In this document: in pieces, positions 3,105 through 52,815 of the stretch
Layout: each line of letters opens with the position of its first letter
Position numbering within the stretch: position 1 is the first letter of the stretch
Translations under genes and position numbers: made by a program
Assembly: GCA_043808095.1 (NCBI GenBank)
Contig: JAZDFF010000005.1
Coordinates: 1 to 60,927 of the forward strand
Reading direction: 5' to 3'
DNA length: 60,927 nt
Origin: Candidatus Omnitrophota bacterium
GTDB taxonomy: Bacteria > Omnitrophota > Gorgyraeia > JAZDFF01
The notes under the pieces: model-generated
The model's input: the letters and a program-made list of their open reading frames with translations, nothing else
Told to the model about the DNA's origin: nothing
Databases searched by the model: none

Positions 3105-3836
3105 TCATTTTATTCTTCCCAGCGGAAACTCCTTCACCAGGTGTTCGTCTATCCATCTCATTGCATCCGTTGGATTTTTATTCCAGTATGTAGGGCAGCT
3201 GGATAAAACCTCTACCATTGCAAAACCCTTGTTTTCTATTTGACAAGTGAATGCCTCTTTTATCGCCTGCCTTGCCTCTCTGATCCTTTTAGCCGAAGTA
3301 ATGGTAACGCGGTTTAAATATTTTACCGAAGCAAGTGTGGCTAAAAGACCTAAGATATTTAAAGGAGGACCTTCTTTCTTTAAATCCCTGCCTGAAGGAG
3401 TAGTGGCGGTCTTCTGGTTTATCAAGGTTGTGGGCGCCATCTGGCCGCCGGTCATACCATAGACGGCATTATTAATAAAAATACAGGTAAGGTTTTCTCC
3501 GCGGTTTGCGGTGTGTATGGTTTCGGCAATTCCGATTGCAGCCAAGTCTCCGTCTCCCTGGTAGGTAAAGATGGTATTCTCGGGCCGCAGACGTTTCATC
3601 GCGGTTGCCACAGCCAGGGCCCGGCCATGGGCTGCCTCGCAACAATCAAAATCCCAGTAATCATAAGCAACAACCGCACAACCTACCGGACAAACAGCTA
3701 TAGTCTTATCTTGAATATCCAGTTCATCAATGACCTCACAGATTAATCTGTGGACAATCCCGTGGCCGCAGCCCGGGCAATAATGGGTCTTTACATTGCG
3801 TATTGATTTGGGACGAGAAAATATTTTTTTCATCAA
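3105..3836 (-). CDS. 2-oxoacid:ferredoxin oxidoreductase, beta (TPP-binding) subunit
   Basis: N-terminal CPGCGHG cysteine motif and GDGD...NN TPP-binding-type motif. Confidence 0.9.
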   Translation of the reverse strand: MMKKIFSRPKSIRNVKTHYCPGCGHGIVHRLICEVIDELDIQDKTIAVCPVGCAVVAYDYWDFDCCEAAHGRALAVATAMKRLRPENTIFTYQGDGDLAAIGIAETIHTANRGENLTCIFINNAVYGMTGGQMAPTTLINQKTATTPSGRDLKKEGPPLNILGLLATLASVKYLNRVTITSAKRIREARQAIKEAFTCQIENKGFAMVEVLSSCPTYWNKNPTDAMRWIDEHLVKEFPLGRIK

Positions 3837-7885: not shown

Positions 7886-8012
7886 ATTAAATGCGAAGCA
7901 CGAAATACGAATTTCGAAATCCTTCGACTCCGCTCTACTTCGACAGGCTCAGTATTCGTCCTGAGCGAGCTCGCCAGAGGCGAGCGAGTCGAAGGGTCGA
8001 TATTCGGATTTA
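7886..8012. repeat. GC-rich REP-like element (FDKLR/VRPELVEG-type family)
   Basis: Contains ttcgacaggctca (7939-7951 = 20263-20275) and gctcagtattcgtcctgag (7947-7965 = 20301-20319) as exact matches to the cluster near 20.3 kb. Confidence 0.85.
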
Positions 8013-13911: not shown

Positions 13912-14076
13912 AAAAAATCCCCGCAACATGCCGTCGGTAGGATGTTTAGAACCCTTTTTCATCAAGTGGGAACTTCTCAATTCACCCAAGGGTGAAACGA
14001 AGTTAGGCTCCCTTTCCTTTTATGTTGGTTCAATACACATTGCTCTACCGACGCACACGGCAGGGATAAGTTTCTA
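13912..14076 (-). ncRNA. candidate ~165-nt rod-shaped small RNA (6S-like architecture)
   Basis: On the minus strand, a ~21-bp closing helix (CCCUGCCGUGUGCGUCGGUAG / CUACCGACGGCAUGUUGCGGGG) is followed by AUUUUUUAUUUU. There is an internal ~13/14-nt bubble and an apical stem GGGA..AACUUC..CACCC-UUG-GGUG..GAAGUU..CCC. It is preceded by a near-consensus promoter and no ORF is present. Confidence 0.45.
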
Positions 14077-19776: not shown

Positions 19777-20243
19777 ATTACTGCTCCTGATAAACAAACA
19801 GAAAATATCTTTTTTGCCAAAGGAACTTCCTGATGAATGCTTCCTCCGCCGGTAATTATCGATAGGGCCTGGGCGTGGATATCTAAATCTCCACCATGTA
19901 TTGGACAGGCGCGATGAAAGACGCCTTCTATCCGGACCCAATCCCCTTTTGTCTTATAACCACCAATATAATTTATATCCTTGGTTAAAACTGGCGGGCA
20001 AAATACGCCTAAAGCCGCTTTTGTATCATTTATACTAAGCCAGGCGCCATCGCTTCGTTTCATTATATCACCAACTACCTCTCCTTCATAGACCACGGTT
20101 TTCCCATCGTAGCGTTTTGCATTATTAATTAACTCAGCGCTTGAAAGCGGCTGGGCATAGACGAAAGTAGCAAGTCCCGAAAGTAGCATTATTATGAAGA
20201 GCGTCATCGGGATCCCGAAGTATAACTTCTTGAGTAGCTTCAT
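19719..20243 (-). CDS. hypothetical secreted/membrane-anchored protein (signal peptide plus C-terminal TM helix)
   Basis: MKLLKKLYFGIPMTLFIIMLLSGLATFVYA signal-like N-terminus and C-terminal IFSVCLSGAVICLLILQSL. The track ORF extends to 20489 only by reading through REP-like repeats. The start is uncertain (20243 or 20207, no clear SD). It overlaps pheS by 58 nt. Confidence 0.5.
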   Translation of the reverse strand: MKLLKKLYFGIPMTLFIIMLLSGLATFVYAQPLSSAELINNAKRYDGKTVVYEGEVVGDIMKRSDGAWLSINDTKAALGVFCPPVLTKDINYIGGYKTKGDWVRIEGVFHRACPIHGGDLDIHAQALSIITGGGSIHQEVPLAKKIFSVCLSGAVICLLILQSLNLTRKAKSKR

Positions 20244-20485
20244 TCGGGATAGCAAGTAGTGGTTCGACAGGCTCACCATCCCTCGAATACATTCGACTAT
20301 GCTCAGTATTCGTCCTGAGTTTATCGAAGGACGAACCATCCCGAGCGACCCATTCGACAAGCTCAGGGTCATCCTGAACAAGCGAAGCGCGTCGAAGGAC
20401 GATGTCGAGGGACAAGTAGCGAGTGCAAATATTATTTCTTTGCGCTTTTGCGGTGTTTTCTCATTTCTTTGCGCTTTTGCGGTTA
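20244..20485. repeat. tandem cluster of GC-rich REP-like units (FDKLR/VRPELVEG-type) plus CGCAAA words
   Basis: At least three units of the form ttcgac..gctcag..cctgag..tcgaagg (20260-20410), then ctttgcgcttttgcggt twice (20436-20480). All three frames translate to the junk peptides FDKLRV, IRPEFIEG and SLSNG. Confidence 0.85.
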
Positions 20486-27175: not shown

Positions 27176-27292
27176 GTCTTAAGGGATAGCAGGGTTTAGT
27201 ATGGGGTAGTAGGGGTTAGAATGGGAAAATTTTAAGACCCCTCCTATCCCCTGCTTACCCATACTAACCCTTTCTAACCCTTAAACTTTTTA
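27176..27292. repeat. word-hairpin element, GGGGTAGTAGG family (copy 2)
   Basis: See copy 1. Lies between tRNA-Val and the thrS start codon. Confidence 0.9.
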
Positions 27293-27310
27293 TTTTTAAC
27301 TTTTTTAACA

Positions 27311-27385
27311 TGGGCCCAAGAGGATTCGAACCTCTGACCTCCTCCATGTCAAGGAGGCGCGCTAACCAGGCTGCGCTATGAGCCC
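27311..27385 (-). tRNA. tRNA-Val (anticodon GAC)
   Basis: Acceptor GGGCUCA/UGGGCCC, anticodon arm CCUCC-UUGACAU-GGAGG, T-arm AGAGG-UUCGAAU-CCUCU, discriminator A. No CCA encoded. Confidence 0.9.
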
Positions 27386-27402
27386 GTCATTCCGCTTTAA
27401 TG

Positions 27403-28098
27403 TTAATTTTTTTCTGAAAGCTTAAATTTCTTGACGAAGTCCCAATTAAATAATATTAAAATAACGCATATTACAACATAAAAACTGGGCAGCCAATAGC
27501 AATACTGCAAGAAACTAAATTCCTCAATCATTTCTTTATTCAATAGGTATGAATGTTCTAACAAAAAATTGCTAACAAAAACAACGCCAGCTATTGGCAA
27601 TAGATACAAAAGGTCATATGACCTAATAAATTTAGAAACAAACCCAATAATATACCCAATAAAAGGGAATCTCCATTGATGAGCACAGTGTAATTGATAA
27701 GTTAAGTGTTTTTTTGCATCATGGGGAAAAAGTTTTTGTTCAAAATTATCGGCGACTAGAGCAGAAACAACCAGATATCTATGATAATGCTTTTCTAGCA
27801 TCCAAACTAATATATTAATGCTTGCTAATATGGTAGCCGCTACAAATAGGATCGCATATATTTTTGAATTAGCTAATACACTTTGTGTAGCATCTACCGT
27901 TGCATTATTGGGGGTCGGCTCTGCTTGTTTAAAAAAATAATTTAAATAAAAAGCGAGTGATGAGCTACTAAATACAGCATTAAACGTAAAGATGATCTGC
28001 CTAAATACGCCAAGAATCTTATCGAAATGCTCAACAGAGTTTCTAGCTATTTTATAGGTCTCTAATAACTTTTCTTCTCTGTCCATTTTTTCGCTCAA
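27403..28098 (-). CDS. hypothetical polytopic membrane protein (AT-rich, tRNA-flanked)
   Basis: 231-aa ORF (TTG 28098 or ATG 28086). It has a soluble ~30-aa N-terminal helix followed by about 5 hydrophobic helices, and I recognise no family. It is visibly more AT-rich than neighbouring housekeeping genes. Confidence 0.5.
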   Translation of the reverse strand: MSEKMDREEKLLETYKIARNSVEHFDKILGVFRQIIFTFNAVFSSSSLAFYLNYFFKQAEPTPNNATVDATQSVLANSKIYAILFVAATILASINILVWMLEKHYHRYLVVSALVADNFEQKLFPHDAKKHLTYQLHCAHQWRFPFIGYIIGFVSKFIRSYDLLYLLPIAGVVFVSNFLLEHSYLLNKEMIEEFSFLQYCYWLPSFYVVICVILILFNWDFVKKFKLSEKN

Positions 28099-28145
28099 CT
28101 AATACCTGCTCTCTACTCGCTACTCTCTACTTGCTACTTCAAACG

Positions 28146-28228
28146 TGGGCAAGGAGGGAGTCGAACCCTCACGGTCTTGCAACCAATAGATTTTAAGTCT
28201 ATCGTGTATTCCATTCCACCACTTGCCC
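28146..28228 (-). tRNA. tRNA-Leu (anticodon UAA), long variable arm
   Basis: GGGCAAG...CUUGCCC acceptor, anticodon arm AUAGA-CUUAAAA-UCUAU, variable arm GGUUGCAAGACCGU, T-arm GAGGG-UUCGACU-CCCUC. Contiguous, with no intron. Confidence 0.9.
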
Positions 28229-28933
28229 TTTTTCTATTACTGTCTTGCTTTTGGACCATCCTACTCTAGACTCAATACATGCTTTGGCTAAGTCCTTTTT
28301 TCTTAACAAGGCAAAAGAGTTTTTATAATAACATCTCTGCACAATAATCCTTGCGGCCATTTTACCATATTTGACTCTAAATTGGTTTTTGGCTTGGCAA
28401 TAAAGTTTGCCCTTAGTCCCTATAATCTTTTCAATTTTATTCTTGAGCCACATCAAAAACTTTCTTGAACCAGAAGTAATTCTTAGATTCCATTGCTCTC
28501 TTTTATTAGTACGGTGTATCCACCTCTGTATTCCGCCATCGCCATCTATCAAGCCCCTCAGAAAATCTAAAAAATAATCTCCTGGGACCTTAATTCGTCC
28601 AAGAACCAAAGACTTTTTAGGCATCAACCCAATGGATAAAAGAAAGTCATAAAAGTTTTTGTTTGCAATCTGAATACGAAAGGCTTTTTGTCTTTTAACT
28701 CCGTACTTGATACCTATTTTATTTCCCATTCCAATTAAATTCCTAATTTCTTGCATAAATTTGTAGTCACTCGACGTAATATCAATATGTCTTCCATCCG
28801 ACGAAAGGCATCCATCGCTCGTAATCAATCCGACGAGATACCAAAGATTCGAACCAGCAATTTTTAAATCTTTCCTCTTTTGAGGCATTTTAATTACATC
28901 CCCCTCGCGCAGGAGCTGGAAAATTTTGTCCAT
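28199..28933 (-). CDS. double-motif LAGLIDADG homing endonuclease
   Basis: Two LAGLIDADG motifs (LVGLITSDGCL and LRGLIDGDGGI) about 100 aa apart. The last 10 codons and the TAG stop (28199-28201) lie inside tRNA-Leu nt 1-30. Confidence 0.85.
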   Translation of the reverse strand: MDKIFQLLREGDVIKMPQKRKDLKIAGSNLWYLVGLITSDGCLSSDGRHIDITSSDYKFMQEIRNLIGMGNKIGIKYGVKRQKAFRIQIANKNFYDFLLSIGLMPKKSLVLGRIKVPGDYFLDFLRGLIDGDGGIQRWIHRTNKREQWNLRITSGSRKFLMWLKNKIEKIIGTKGKLYCQAKNQFRVKYGKMAARIIVQRCYYKNSFALLRKKDLAKACIESRVGWSKSKTVIEKGQVVEWNTR

Positions 28934-28967
28934 AGGCTCGAGGTGAATTTTGCGCAGTAAAATTCAA

Positions 28968-29019
28968 GGCGACGGTCGGTATCGAACCGACGCATGAAGG
29001 TTTTGTCCTTCGACTCGCC
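28968..29019 (-). other. 52-nt truncated tRNA-like element (acceptor stem plus one internal arm plus T-arm)
   Basis: GGCGAGUCGAAGGACAAAACCUUCAUGCGUCGGUUCGAUACCGACCGUCGCC. It has a 5-bp acceptor GGCGA/UCGCC, a hairpin GAAGG-ACAAAA-CCUUC and a canonical T-arm GUCGG-UUCGAUA-CCGAC. One cloverleaf arm is missing. Confidence 0.4.
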
Positions 29020-29040
29020 ATTAAATTATTACAATTGCTT

Positions 29041-29115
29041 TGGAGGCGGCAAGCGGATTCGAACCGCTGAATAGTGGTTTTGCAGACCACTGCCTTACCA
29101 CTTGGCTATGCCGCC
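29041..29115 (-). tRNA. tRNA-Cys (anticodon GCA), 3' CCA encoded
   Basis: Acceptor GGCGGCA/UGCCGCC, anticodon arm GUGGU-CUGCAAA-ACCAC, T-arm AGCGG-UUCGAAU-CCGCU, U73, CCA. Confidence 0.9.
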
Positions 29116-29119
29116 ATAA

Positions 29120-29230
29120 ATTATTTTGGCTCGCTCAGGATAGCCCAAAAATGCCGAGCGAAGGCCTTCGATTGCACTCAGGCCAAGTCCTGAGCCTGTC
29201 GAAGGACGAAGTCGAGGCACAGACCTCTAC
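29120..29230. repeat. GC-rich REP-like element (FDKLR/VRPELVEG-type family)
   Basis: ggctcgctcaggatagcc...cactcaggccaagtcctgagcctgtcgaaggacgaagtcgagg carries the same ctcagg/cctgag/gtcgaagg words as 7.9 kb and 20.3 kb. Confidence 0.75.
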
Positions 29231-29256
29231 CTTTCCGCTTGGGTACGTCGCCACTA

Positions 29257-29793
29257 TCACGCCAAAATCTTTTTTACTCGGTCTACAATATCTTCTACCT
29301 TTGCCAGGTGTCCGACGCCAATTTTTCCAGAGGCAAGTCTTCCTTTTATCGGTCCGACAAATTTATGTCCCAGGTTCTCTAATTTTTTAATATTTCCCTG
29401 GATAATCTTATTAAGAAACATGTTCTCGTCCATGGCCGGGGCGATTAAAACCGGCGCGGTAGAGGCGCACACTGTAGTGGTCAAAAGATCGTCGCAGATA
29501 CCGCAGGCAATTTGGGAAATAACATTAGCCGTTGCCGGAGCAATCAGGATTAGGTCCGCTTTCCTGGCCAGGGATATATGGTTCGGCTGCCAGTCGGTGG
29601 GGATCTCAAACATATCCTGATAAACCTTATTGCCGGAGAGCGTCTCGAGGGTAAGGGCAGTAATAAAGCGCTCTGCCTCTTTGGTCAAAATCACCGAGAC
29701 CGAGAAGCCTTCGTCTTTTAATTGCCTGATAATATCGCAGGCCTTATACGCGGCAATACTTCCGGTTATACCTAAAACTACCTCTTTTTTCAT
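29257..29793 (-). CDS. coaC: phosphopantothenoylcysteine decarboxylase-type flavoprotein (CoaC domain only)
   Basis: VVLGITGSIAAYKACDIIRQL...APATANVI is typical of the flavoprotein/CoaC half of CoaBC. At 178 aa it has no CoaB half. Confidence 0.8.
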   Translation of the reverse strand: MKKEVVLGITGSIAAYKACDIIRQLKDEGFSVSVILTKEAERFITALTLETLSGNKVYQDMFEIPTDWQPNHISLARKADLILIAPATANVISQIACGICDDLLTTTVCASTAPVLIAPAMDENMFLNKIIQGNIKKLENLGHKFVGPIKGRLASGKIGVGHLAKVEDIVDRVKKILA

Positions 29794-44856: not shown

Positions 44857-44960
44857 GACCCCATCGTCTAGCCTGGTTAGGACAAGAGCTTTTTCCCGCC
44901 GAGCCAAAGGCGAGGCGGGATCCCGACCTCGCTTTCAGCTCGGTCGGGACAAGCTCTCGA
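44857..44960 (+). pseudogene. disrupted partial copy of tRNA-Glu (nt 1-48) with a 56-nt double-hairpin insert in the anticodon loop
   Basis: 44857-44893 is identical to tRNA-Glu nt 1-37 (45206-45242). 44950-44960 (caagctctcga) equals 45243-45253. The insert at 44894-44949 forms CCCGCC..GGCGGG and TCCCGACC..GGTCGGGA hairpins. The T-arm and 3' acceptor strand are absent. Confidence 0.75.
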
Positions 44961-44965
44961 GGACT

Positions 44966-45220
44966 ATGTATTATGTTTATGTGTTAGAAAACAATAAAGG
45001 GAGACATTATATTGGCAGTTGTGTAAATGTAGAAGAAAGGCTGAAACGACACAACCAAAATAGCGTCAGATCCACCAAGAATAAAGGGCCTTTTACAATA
45101 GCGTATCAAAAAGAATTCAGCACTAGAAGAGAAGCGAGAATTAGAGAGAACCAAATCAAGCGCTACAAAAATAGCGGCTATTTGAGAAGGTTAATAAATA
45201 GACAGGACCCCATCGTCTAG
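44966..45220 (+). CDS. small stand-alone GIY-YIG nuclease-domain protein (84 aa)
   Basis: YYVYVLENNKGRHYIGSCVNVEERLKRHN...REARIRENQIK shows the GIY..YIG..R..H..E..N pattern. The TAG stop (45218-45220) lies in the D-arm of the intact tRNA-Glu. Confidence 0.8.
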   Translation: MYYVYVLENNKGRHYIGSCVNVEERLKRHNQNSVRSTKNKGPFTIAYQKEFSTRREARIRENQIKRYKNSGYLRRLINRQDPIV

Positions 45221-45279
45221 CCTGGTTAGGACAAGAGCTTTTCAAGCTCTCGACACCGGTTCAAATCCGGTTGGGGTCG
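45206..45279 (+). tRNA. tRNA-Glu (anticodon UUC)
   Basis: Acceptor GACCCCA/UGGGGUC, anticodon arm AGAGC-UUUUCAA-GCUCU, T-arm ACCGG-UUCAAAU-CCGGU, discriminator G. No CCA encoded. Confidence 0.9.
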
Positions 45280-52731: not shown

Positions 52732-52815
52732 GAAGATGATTATCCCGAATGATGTTATTCTTTGTAGTATCTCTTCGGGATCCCGTTTTTAATTTAATTG
52801 TTGGGCGGGAAAAGA

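Follow-up and report, generated by a model that had tools for sequence, protein, structure and literature searches.

Gene content of the locus

In a 60,927-nt stretch of DNA from a Candidatus Omnitrophota bacterium (contig JAZDFF010000005.1; the whole stretch is here called the window, and all coordinates refer to it), a gene for a LAGLIDADG endonuclease lies on the minus strand between the genes for tRNA-Cys(GCA) and tRNA-Leu(UAA). A first-pass annotation of the sequence had described here, in minus-strand order, the tRNA-Cys, a short gap, a 52-nt tRNA-like element, an open reading frame (ORF) and the tRNA-Leu, and all of these coordinates hold by ARAGORN, Rfam, ORF calling and inspection of the sequence (Table 1). 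The tRNA-Leu is uninterrupted, as described, and the ORF does end within it: the final 30 nt of the ORF, including the stop codon TAG (28201–28199), are nt 1–30 of the tRNA, and this stop is in frame with the tRNA-Leu anticodon TAA, two codons ahead of it.

The annotation had seen no intron at the locus, and a scan of 27200–29400 with Rfam models agrees with this: no group I intron (RF00028) was matched at the gathering score or at E ≤ 10, only tRNAs were found, with no intron core that could carry the ORF. No Hint or intein domain was detected in the ORF protein by Pfam. The LAGLIDADG gene is free-standing, outside any intron or intein, with intact tRNAs on either side.

Table 1. Features of the tRNA-Cys/tRNA-Leu locus and of other tRNA-associated sites in the window.
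Feature	Position	Strand	Remarks
tRNA-Cys(GCA), intact, presumably functional	29115-29041	-	ARAGORN; Rfam tRNA 70.5 bits; nested in 214-nt insertion
52-nt "mini-tRNA" element	29019-28968	-	21-nt gap from tRNA-Cys; 34-nt gap to longest ORF
LAGLIDADG ORF, longest version	28933-28199	-	244 aa; Pfam LAGLIDADG_3 9.9e-11
LAGLIDADG gene, likely version	28888-28199	-	229 aa; last 8-10 codons tRNA-encoded
tRNA-Leu(UAA), uninterrupted	28228-28145	-	ARAGORN and Rfam; nt 1-30 shared with ORF end
Leader with two hairpins	28967-28889	-	GAATTTT..AAAATTC, then CCTCGAGC..GCGAGGGG
Older tRNA-Cys(GCA), 5' part, standard nt 1-34	29252-29220	-	Ends CTG; begins 4 nt past coaBC stop
Insertion of 214 nt between G34 and C35 of older tRNA-Cys	29219-29006	-	Holds working tRNA-Cys
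52-nt element, 5' portion, GGCGAGTCGAAGGA	29019-29006	-	Contains repeat-matching 12-mer
52-nt element, 3' portion: older tRNA-Cys nt 35-72	29005-28968	-	U73 at 28967
Partial tRNA-Glu, nt 1-35 and nt 36-46	44857-44893 and 44950-44960	+	Split by hairpin pair 44894-44949
GIY-YIG ORF	44966-45220	+	84 aa; GIY-YIG domain 6e-15
tRNA-Glu, intact	45206-45279	+	15-nt overlap: last five codons of ORF
231-aa ORF, predicted membrane protein	28098-27403	-	Between tRNA-Leu and tRNA-Val
tRNA-Val(GAC)	27385-27311	-	ARAGORN; customary next tRNA of the Omnitrophota cluster

The predicted endonuclease

The double-motif LAGLIDADG assignment made in the first pass is confirmed by Pfam and by the two motifs GLITSDG (D25) and GLIDGDG (D117), whose catalytic Asp residues are both invariant in an alignment of 32 homologues; a search found 544 homologues in all. 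The frame of 244 aa is open as reported; since the homologues all begin MPxKRK, translation probably begins at ATG 28888, which gives a protein of 229 aa. The AlphaFold2 (AF2) model is a confident single-chain, two-domain fold (predicted local distance difference test, pLDDT, 87.9; predicted template-modelling score, pTM, 0.86), and by AF2 and Foldseek it has the pseudo-dimeric alpha-beta-beta-alpha-beta-beta-alpha arrangement; residues 221–229, which are tRNA-encoded, are disordered in it. The best Foldseek match was I-Tsp061I (2dch; E 4.6e-13, template-modelling score, TM, 0.65/0.72), followed by E-DreI (an I-DmoI/I-CreI chimera), I-AniI and I-SceI, with WhiA and LAGLIDADG maturases also among the structural neighbours.

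WhiA has degenerate motifs without the catalytic acids, together with a C-terminal helix-turn-helix (HTH) domain. A domesticated protein of the WhiA type was considered and is not matched, as the catalytic Asp residues are kept and neither Pfam nor NCBIfam finds an additional domain. In the closest pairs dN/dS is 0.07–0.19. On sequence and structural modelling, the ORF is an intact two-domain LAGLIDADG homing endonuclease for which the activity typical of its class, specific cutting of a long DNA target with 4-nt 3' overhangs, is predicted.

A family bound to one tRNA junction

A profile search placed the family at 158 clusters at 50% identity (E ≤ 1e-30), and 80 homologous loci were fetched from species-representative genomes (fetched homologous and comparison loci are labelled L001 and so on). 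In 78 of the 80, a tRNA-Leu(UAA) in the same orientation lies 3' of the ORF, at distances from –27 to +88 nt. In the remaining two, L067 and L068, the tRNA-Leu(UAA) carries a group I intron in its anticodon loop (RF00028, 76.9 and 65.3 bits; positions 1105–1376 and 3160–3396, respectively) with GGACT before and TAAAATCC after it, and the ORF is upstream of the 5' exon, outside the intron; with these two counted, the association with tRNA-Leu(UAA) extends to 80 of 80 loci. No homologue away from tRNAs was found among them. tRNA-Cys(GCA) is directly upstream in about 66 of the 80. The gene is tightly tied to tRNA genes, and the same ORF at loci unconnected with tRNAs, which would have told against the proposal of the first-pass annotation, did not turn up among these loci.

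The hosts are Omnitrophota and, at 42–50% identity, members of the candidate phyla radiation (CPR/Patescibacteria), Elusimicrobia, Armatimonadota, Bdellovibrionales and deltaproteobacterial metagenome-assembled genomes (MAGs). The annotated locus of E. coli K-12 has the same Cys–Leu(UAA) pair (cysT, 12 nt, leuZ) without an endonuclease gene, so the insertion site is a widespread and conserved tRNA junction; a BLAST search of E. coli with a CPR tRNA-Leu query gave no match. In most loci the stop codon falls 0–15 nt ahead of tRNA-Leu, and in about 25 it falls inside the tRNA, being the anticodon TAA itself in L005, L011, L036 and L084. Given these roughly 25 cases, the overlap in the window reads as a recurrent result of tight packing. 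A literature search found no account of the family or of the tRNA-wedged arrangement, and the family is large and apparently undescribed.

A small GIY-YIG gene occupies the same tRNA-Cys(GCA)/tRNA-Leu(UAA) spacer in two metagenome contigs (L337 and L338); judged by these genes, two predicted nuclease families have converged on the one Cys–Leu(UAA) site.

Presence, absence and mosaicism

Comparison loci from Omnitrophota were found through the neighbouring CoaC gene, a route that yields examples among the matches listed and no frequency. Among these matches, L090, L091 and L110 are empty sites in which the Cys and Leu genes are 11–34 nt apart; the L090 allele consists of tRNA-Cys, 11 nt, and then a tRNA-Leu beginning GGGCAAGTGGTGGAATGGCATACACGACAG. 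L086, from the same set of matches, is an internally deleted endonuclease remnant. The loci L043, L045 and L047 share upstream flanks and tRNA-Cys at 90–100% identity, with only 25–70% nucleotide identity in the middle of the ORF; the mosaic break points lie inside the ORF, and the tRNA-Leu appears to be co-converted. Over 946 locus pairs, pairwise identities of endonuclease and CoaC correlate with r = 0.45, with strong outliers in both directions. The family shows the presence or absence at one conserved site, the decayed copies and the horizontal replacement that characterize a homing gene.

tRNA-Leu stumps and the predicted cut

Fragments of tRNA-Leu accompany the ORF in a number of loci. 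Stumps of the 5' part, running from nt 1 to nt 16–27 and never past 27, stand directly before the ATG in L007, L029, L049, L018, L054, L046 and L021, and about 60 nt upstream of the ORF in L085; in three loci the ATG is within the D-loop of the stump. In every case examined, the 5' stump and the intact tRNA-Leu next to it are not the same in sequence. Stumps of the 3' part (nt 56–84) follow the intact tRNA in L034 and L045. This pattern is the signature of an endonuclease gene that brings a replacement copy with it when it enters a tRNA-Leu gene, and we infer a cut between approximately nt 27 and the anticodon loop of tRNA-Leu(UAA).

The D-loop substitutions offer a hint of self-immunity in the endonuclease-linked tRNA-Leu alleles: a "sensitive" D-loop is carried by 1 of 10 such alleles vs about 5 of 8 empty-site alleles and stumps, the counts being small and not phylogenetically independent. 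The first codons of the CPR members (MVDLK) resemble the tRNA-Leu anticodon arm. Derivation of the ORF 5' end from that arm (the DLK codons being GAYTTAAAA) was followed as a lead only, the nhmmer matches being weak (E 0.08–3); by these matches, ORF starts resembling the anticodon arm, all of CPR type, occur in 6–7 of the 80 loci vs 1 of 160 controls.

The 52-nt element and the split tRNA-Cys

The first-pass annotation treated the 52-nt element as a free-standing mini-tRNA unit. This interpretation is not upheld: its 3' 38 nt pair with the stretch at 29252–29220, and its GGCGA arm comes from a repeat. The element does fold better than shuffled controls (z –2.5; 3 of 200 shuffles equal it), as the annotation expected of a true structure. 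It has only a T arm and a 3' acceptor strand, and neither ARAGORN nor Rfam calls it as a tRNA.

By ARAGORN and manual joining, 29252–29220 and 29005–28968 together make a canonical 72-nt tRNA-Cys(GCA) with U73; ARAGORN in intron mode (0–400 nt) did not call the split gene. Over 33 nt the 5' part shares 88% identity with the tRNA-Cys of L019, and the acceptor stem and 3' flank are those of the intact tRNA-Cys in L001 and L007. Assignment of the joined tRNA to Tyr or His was ruled out by U73, the lack of G-1, the class I variable loop and the closeness to tRNA-Cys.

The arms GTCCTTCGAC (29207–29198) and GTCGAAGGAC (29014–29005) of the insertion form a 10-bp inverted repeat. The GGCGA arm of the element sits in a 12-nt stretch, GCGAGTCGAAGG, of which an exact copy is found at 7984–7995 in a palindromic repeat and which recurs at the corresponding junction of L013; with the 12-mer present at 7984–7995, GGCGA as a remnant acceptor strand was ruled out for the window and for L013, which shares the junction of GCGAGTCGAAGGA and CAAAAC. 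That rejection applies to these two only, and in L061, where 10 nt of the upstream flank are repeated, the same nested architecture is found with the split at the same bond. Further tRNA-Cys stumps are of the 3' part in L013 and L028 and of the 5' part in L290 and L010. Most homologous loci have no 52-nt element, and in them the intact tRNA-Cys ends 5–17 nt ahead of the ATG. Judged by its composition, the 52-nt element is probably debris, the 3' part of an insertion-split tRNA-Cys joined to the end of a palindromic repeat, and not a functional unit.

The palindromic repeat family, of the form TTCGACAGGCTCAG...CCTGAGC..GTCGAAGG, occurs in the window at 7920–7996, ~20260–20412 and 29219–29005, and a related palindromic element fills the coaBC–tRNA-Cys spacer in L062 and L286. 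A genome scan with the 14-mer TCGAAGGACAAAAC was non-specific.

Leader and expression signals

The two-hairpin leader of the window is shared by a subset of the homologous loci (L007, L286, L032, L034, L039 and L025). Seven pairs are predicted in it, three of them with compensatory changes, and on its own the fold does no better than shuffles (z –0.84). In general form the module has an A/T-rich stem followed by YCYCGAGC..GCGAGRGR; it is seen 3' of tRNA-Cys in several loci and, in L004 and L039, 3' of tRNA-Leu as well.

In approximately 27 loci the distance from tRNA-Cys to the ATG is 5–17 nt, with no GGAGG. The CPR-type loci L059, L063 and L072–L085 have a TATAAT box 5–8 nt ahead of ATGGTTGACTTAA at the ORF start, and the CPR members seem to have a promoter of their own that yields leaderless mRNAs. 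A scan for promoters and terminators gave no promoter signal above shuffles.

A second nuclease at tRNA-Glu

The first-pass annotation mentioned a second nuclease ORF in the window that is preceded by a tRNA-like structure and overlaps the tRNA behind it, and suggested a strategy common to both. The second case is real (44857–45279): a GIY-YIG ORF follows a partial tRNA-Glu and runs into an intact one. Of its 19 closest homologues, 18 abut a tRNA-Glu, and the other lies 161 nt upstream of one; the cassette layout recurs among these loci, most of which keep a partial tRNA-Glu leader, which co-varies with the intact tRNA in L296, L297 and L306. More distant homologues precede other tRNAs. With the GIY-YIG homologues placed at tRNAs in this way, the suggestion of a shared strategy is supported.

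The hairpin pair that interrupts the tRNA-Glu stump lies in its anticodon loop and has TCCCG..CGGGA ends. Pairs of adjacent hairpins, each hairpin with such ends, form a dispersed double-hairpin repeat in the window (20175–20249, 44894–44949 and 52743–52811), of which the copy at 52743 is clearly and that at 20175 probably intergenic. In tRNA stumps, and at ~20412, the double-hairpin element lies directly 5' of CAA, and the relatives L294, L299 and L302 have further hairpin pairs in the D-loop of the stump.

Neighbouring features

The 231-aa ORF downstream of tRNA-Leu has no Pfam or NCBIfam match. In most relatives tRNA-Leu and tRNA-Val are adjacent, and this predicted membrane-protein gene may be further cargo inserted into the tRNA cluster. 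A 6S RNA at 13914–14069 on the minus strand (Rfam, 53.3 bits) confirms the bacterial chromosomal context.

Proposed mechanism and alternatives

We consider it likely that the gene is a free-standing, single-chain LAGLIDADG homing gene, predicted to be active, that resides in the Cys–Leu spacer by intronless homing and is expressed by tRNA punctuation. The enzyme would cut the tRNA-Leu(UAA) gene of alleles that have no endonuclease, and repair from an endonuclease-bearing copy would import the ORF with part or all of the donor tRNA-Leu, the two conserved tRNA genes acting as homology arms. Where donor and recipient tRNAs differ, sloppy repair would leave stumps of the displaced tRNA. The gene would be transcribed with the tRNA operon and freed by tRNA processing, as a near-leaderless message with no Shine–Dalgarno sequence; tight packing would often put the stop codon inside tRNA-Leu, with the tRNA-encoded tail a disordered by-product. 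As for the older tRNA-Cys, it would have been split in its anticodon loop by the 214-nt insertion with inverted-repeat ends, which may have brought, or enclosed, the replacement tRNA-Cys.

Several points weigh against this proposal. In the tRNA-Cys relics the break falls cleanly between nt 34 and 35, with nothing lost or duplicated, which makes them look more like the product of a repeat-element insertion than of double-strand break repair. An intact tRNA-Leu(UAA) is always present 3' of the ORF, which leaves self-immunity unaccounted for. The endonuclease and CoaC are equally diverged (mean identity 57.7% and 58.6%), and long vertical residence fits this as well. A search for near-isogenic genomes differing in the gene gave no such pair, the nearest being ~76% identical in nucleotides; a search of viral contigs, as a possible vehicle, gave no homologues; and a search of sequencing runs returned no RNA runs, only DNA runs from groundwater metagenomes sharing ≤11% of the sampled words.

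The equal divergence from CoaC would also be expected if the LAGLIDADG protein had been domesticated as a host factor of the tRNA operon (a regulator, a maturase-like helper or a guardian of the cluster), inherited vertically and no longer homing. Strong purifying selection (dN/dS 0.07–0.19 in the closest pairs) and a position and orientation fixed across very deep divergence point the same way, as does the presence of WhiA and LAGLIDADG maturases among the structural neighbours. Against this stand the invariance of both catalytic Asp residues, which WhiA has lost, and the lack of an extra domain, as well as the clean empty sites and decayed copy in the same phylum, the mosaic ORFs in near-identical backgrounds, the displaced-tRNA stumps beside the ORF and the unrelated GIY-YIG nuclease in the same spacer in L337 and L338. 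We regard domestication as unlikely. We also regard as unlikely a functional role for the 52-nt element in tRNA-like processing, in which it would serve RNase P, RNase Z or the CCA-adding enzyme as a minihelix and set the 5' end of the endonuclease mRNA in the manner of t-elements or mascRNA. Its acceptor-like stem, single hairpin and canonical T arm would suit such a role, L013, L028 and L061 have similar stumps in the interval from tRNA-Cys to the ORF, and the partial tRNA-Glu is kept before the ATG in nearly all homologous GIY-YIG loci and co-varies with the intact tRNA; yet most LAGLIDADG loci do without the element, its 5' arm matches a repeat stretch away from tRNAs, the stumps of other genomes contain many hairpin insertions and have no 5' arms, and its D-arm partner is 200 nt upstream and makes a C10–U25 mismatch.

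That the ORF is borne by an intron, either a degenerate one of group I or a bacterial tRNA intron of a new kind, whose splicing would restore the split tRNA-Cys or the tRNA-Leu, is largely refuted and highly improbable. The tRNA-Cys insertion is in the anticodon loop, the usual place of bacterial tRNA group I introns, and L067 and L068 do carry such an intron in tRNA-Leu(UAA); against this reading, the Rfam scan of 27200–29400 gave no group I match, the tRNA-Leu is contiguous, and the ORF is outside both the tRNA-Cys insertion and, in L067 and L068, the intron. The insertion minus the nested tRNA is only ~140 nt, and the intact tRNA-Cys makes splicing needless. An archaeal bulge-helix-bulge intron was also tried, drawn by hand and judged by eye, and no 3-4-3 motif fits.

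Free-standing homing endonucleases are known chiefly from phages and organelles; under the homing interpretation that we prefer, what is new here is a sizeable family bound to a single conserved tRNA pair on the chromosomes of several little-known bacterial phyla. The family would account for ORFs ending in tRNAs, half-tRNAs and nested tRNAs in the annotation of these genomes, predict natural meganucleases with tRNA-gene targets, suggest a replacement and reshaping of essential tRNA genes by selfish nucleases, and offer a possible route for the movement of the ORF-less tRNA-Leu(UAA) intron. A more far-reaching version, which we hold to be doubtful, is that the enzymes of the family cut tRNA-Leu(UAA) genes in the region of the anticodon arm, at the very site of this ancient ORF-less group I intron. 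If this were so, three consequences would follow, concerning a mobility partner, immunity alleles and a cassette class: the family would be the missing mobility partner of the intron by collaborative homing, as in L067 and L068; tRNA alleles linked to an endonuclease would have immunity substitutions at those D-loop positions where change is tolerated, and selfish nucleases would drive allele replacement and sequence diversification in the essential tRNA genes of Omnitrophota and CPR; and, together with the GIY-YIG genes before particular tRNAs, the family would define a general class of bacterial chromosomal homing cassettes of a "bring-your-own-tRNA" type.

Comparison with known systems

The proposed mode of expression recalls the tRNA punctuation of mitochondrial transcripts, reportedly described by Ojala et al. 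in 1981. In both, the mRNA is flanked directly by tRNAs, with no room for a promoter or a Shine–Dalgarno sequence, and the stop codon may be incomplete or may depend on the tRNA; here, unlike in mitochondria, the setting is a bacterial operon and the processing is presumed. Paquin, Laforest and Lang are said to have reported in 1994 a mobile endonuclease ORF with a co-transferred gene fragment in the mitochondrial atp6 gene of Allomyces. That system reportedly likewise has a partial copy of the target travelling along, which replaces the resident part and leaves it behind as a pseudogene stump, and double-hairpin repeats nearby; its target, however, is a mitochondrial protein-coding gene with an in-frame fusion, in contrast to the bacterial tRNA genes at issue here.

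The enzyme resembles I-Tsp061I and I-DmoI (PDB 2dch and 2vs7), which are encoded in archaeal rRNA introns, in its single-chain two-domain fold and its catalytic motifs. With the LAGLIDADG genes of CPR rRNA insertions (PMC11270868) the family has in common CPR hosts and a highly conserved RNA gene as the target; unlike genes in rRNA introns and insertions, which are excised from the RNA, the window gene lies between genes, and replacement rather than splicing deals with the gene that it interrupts. The account of CPR rRNA insertions (PMC11270868) does not mention tRNA loci. In collaborative, or trans, homing, a free-standing endonuclease is paired with an intron, as are F-CphI with the psbA intron and T4 mobE with I-TevIII (PMC3984707, PMC2790892). 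By contrast, an intron arrangement is present in only 2 of the 80 loci here, L067 and L068, which may represent such a pairing for an ORF-less tRNA-Leu intron, and the tRNA-Leu of the window has no intron.

The best fit appears to be intronless homing, as described for free-standing endonucleases of phages (PMC3984707), and the closest case is T4 SegB, a free-standing GIY-YIG endonuclease in the T4 tRNA cluster whose 27-bp site holds an 11-bp T-psi-C motif (PMC2330249). The window family differs from SegB in being chromosomal and bacterial, in its LAGLIDADG fold, in an ORF that abuts or overlaps a tRNA and in a cleavage that is so far presumed, and further in its one fixed Cys/Leu(UAA) site across phyla, its replacement tRNA copies and its putative tRNA-punctuated, near-leaderless expression. 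As in SegB, a free-standing endonuclease gene stands among tRNA genes and is inherited along with its neighbours, and the target, known for SegB and predicted for the window family, lies in tRNA gene sequence.

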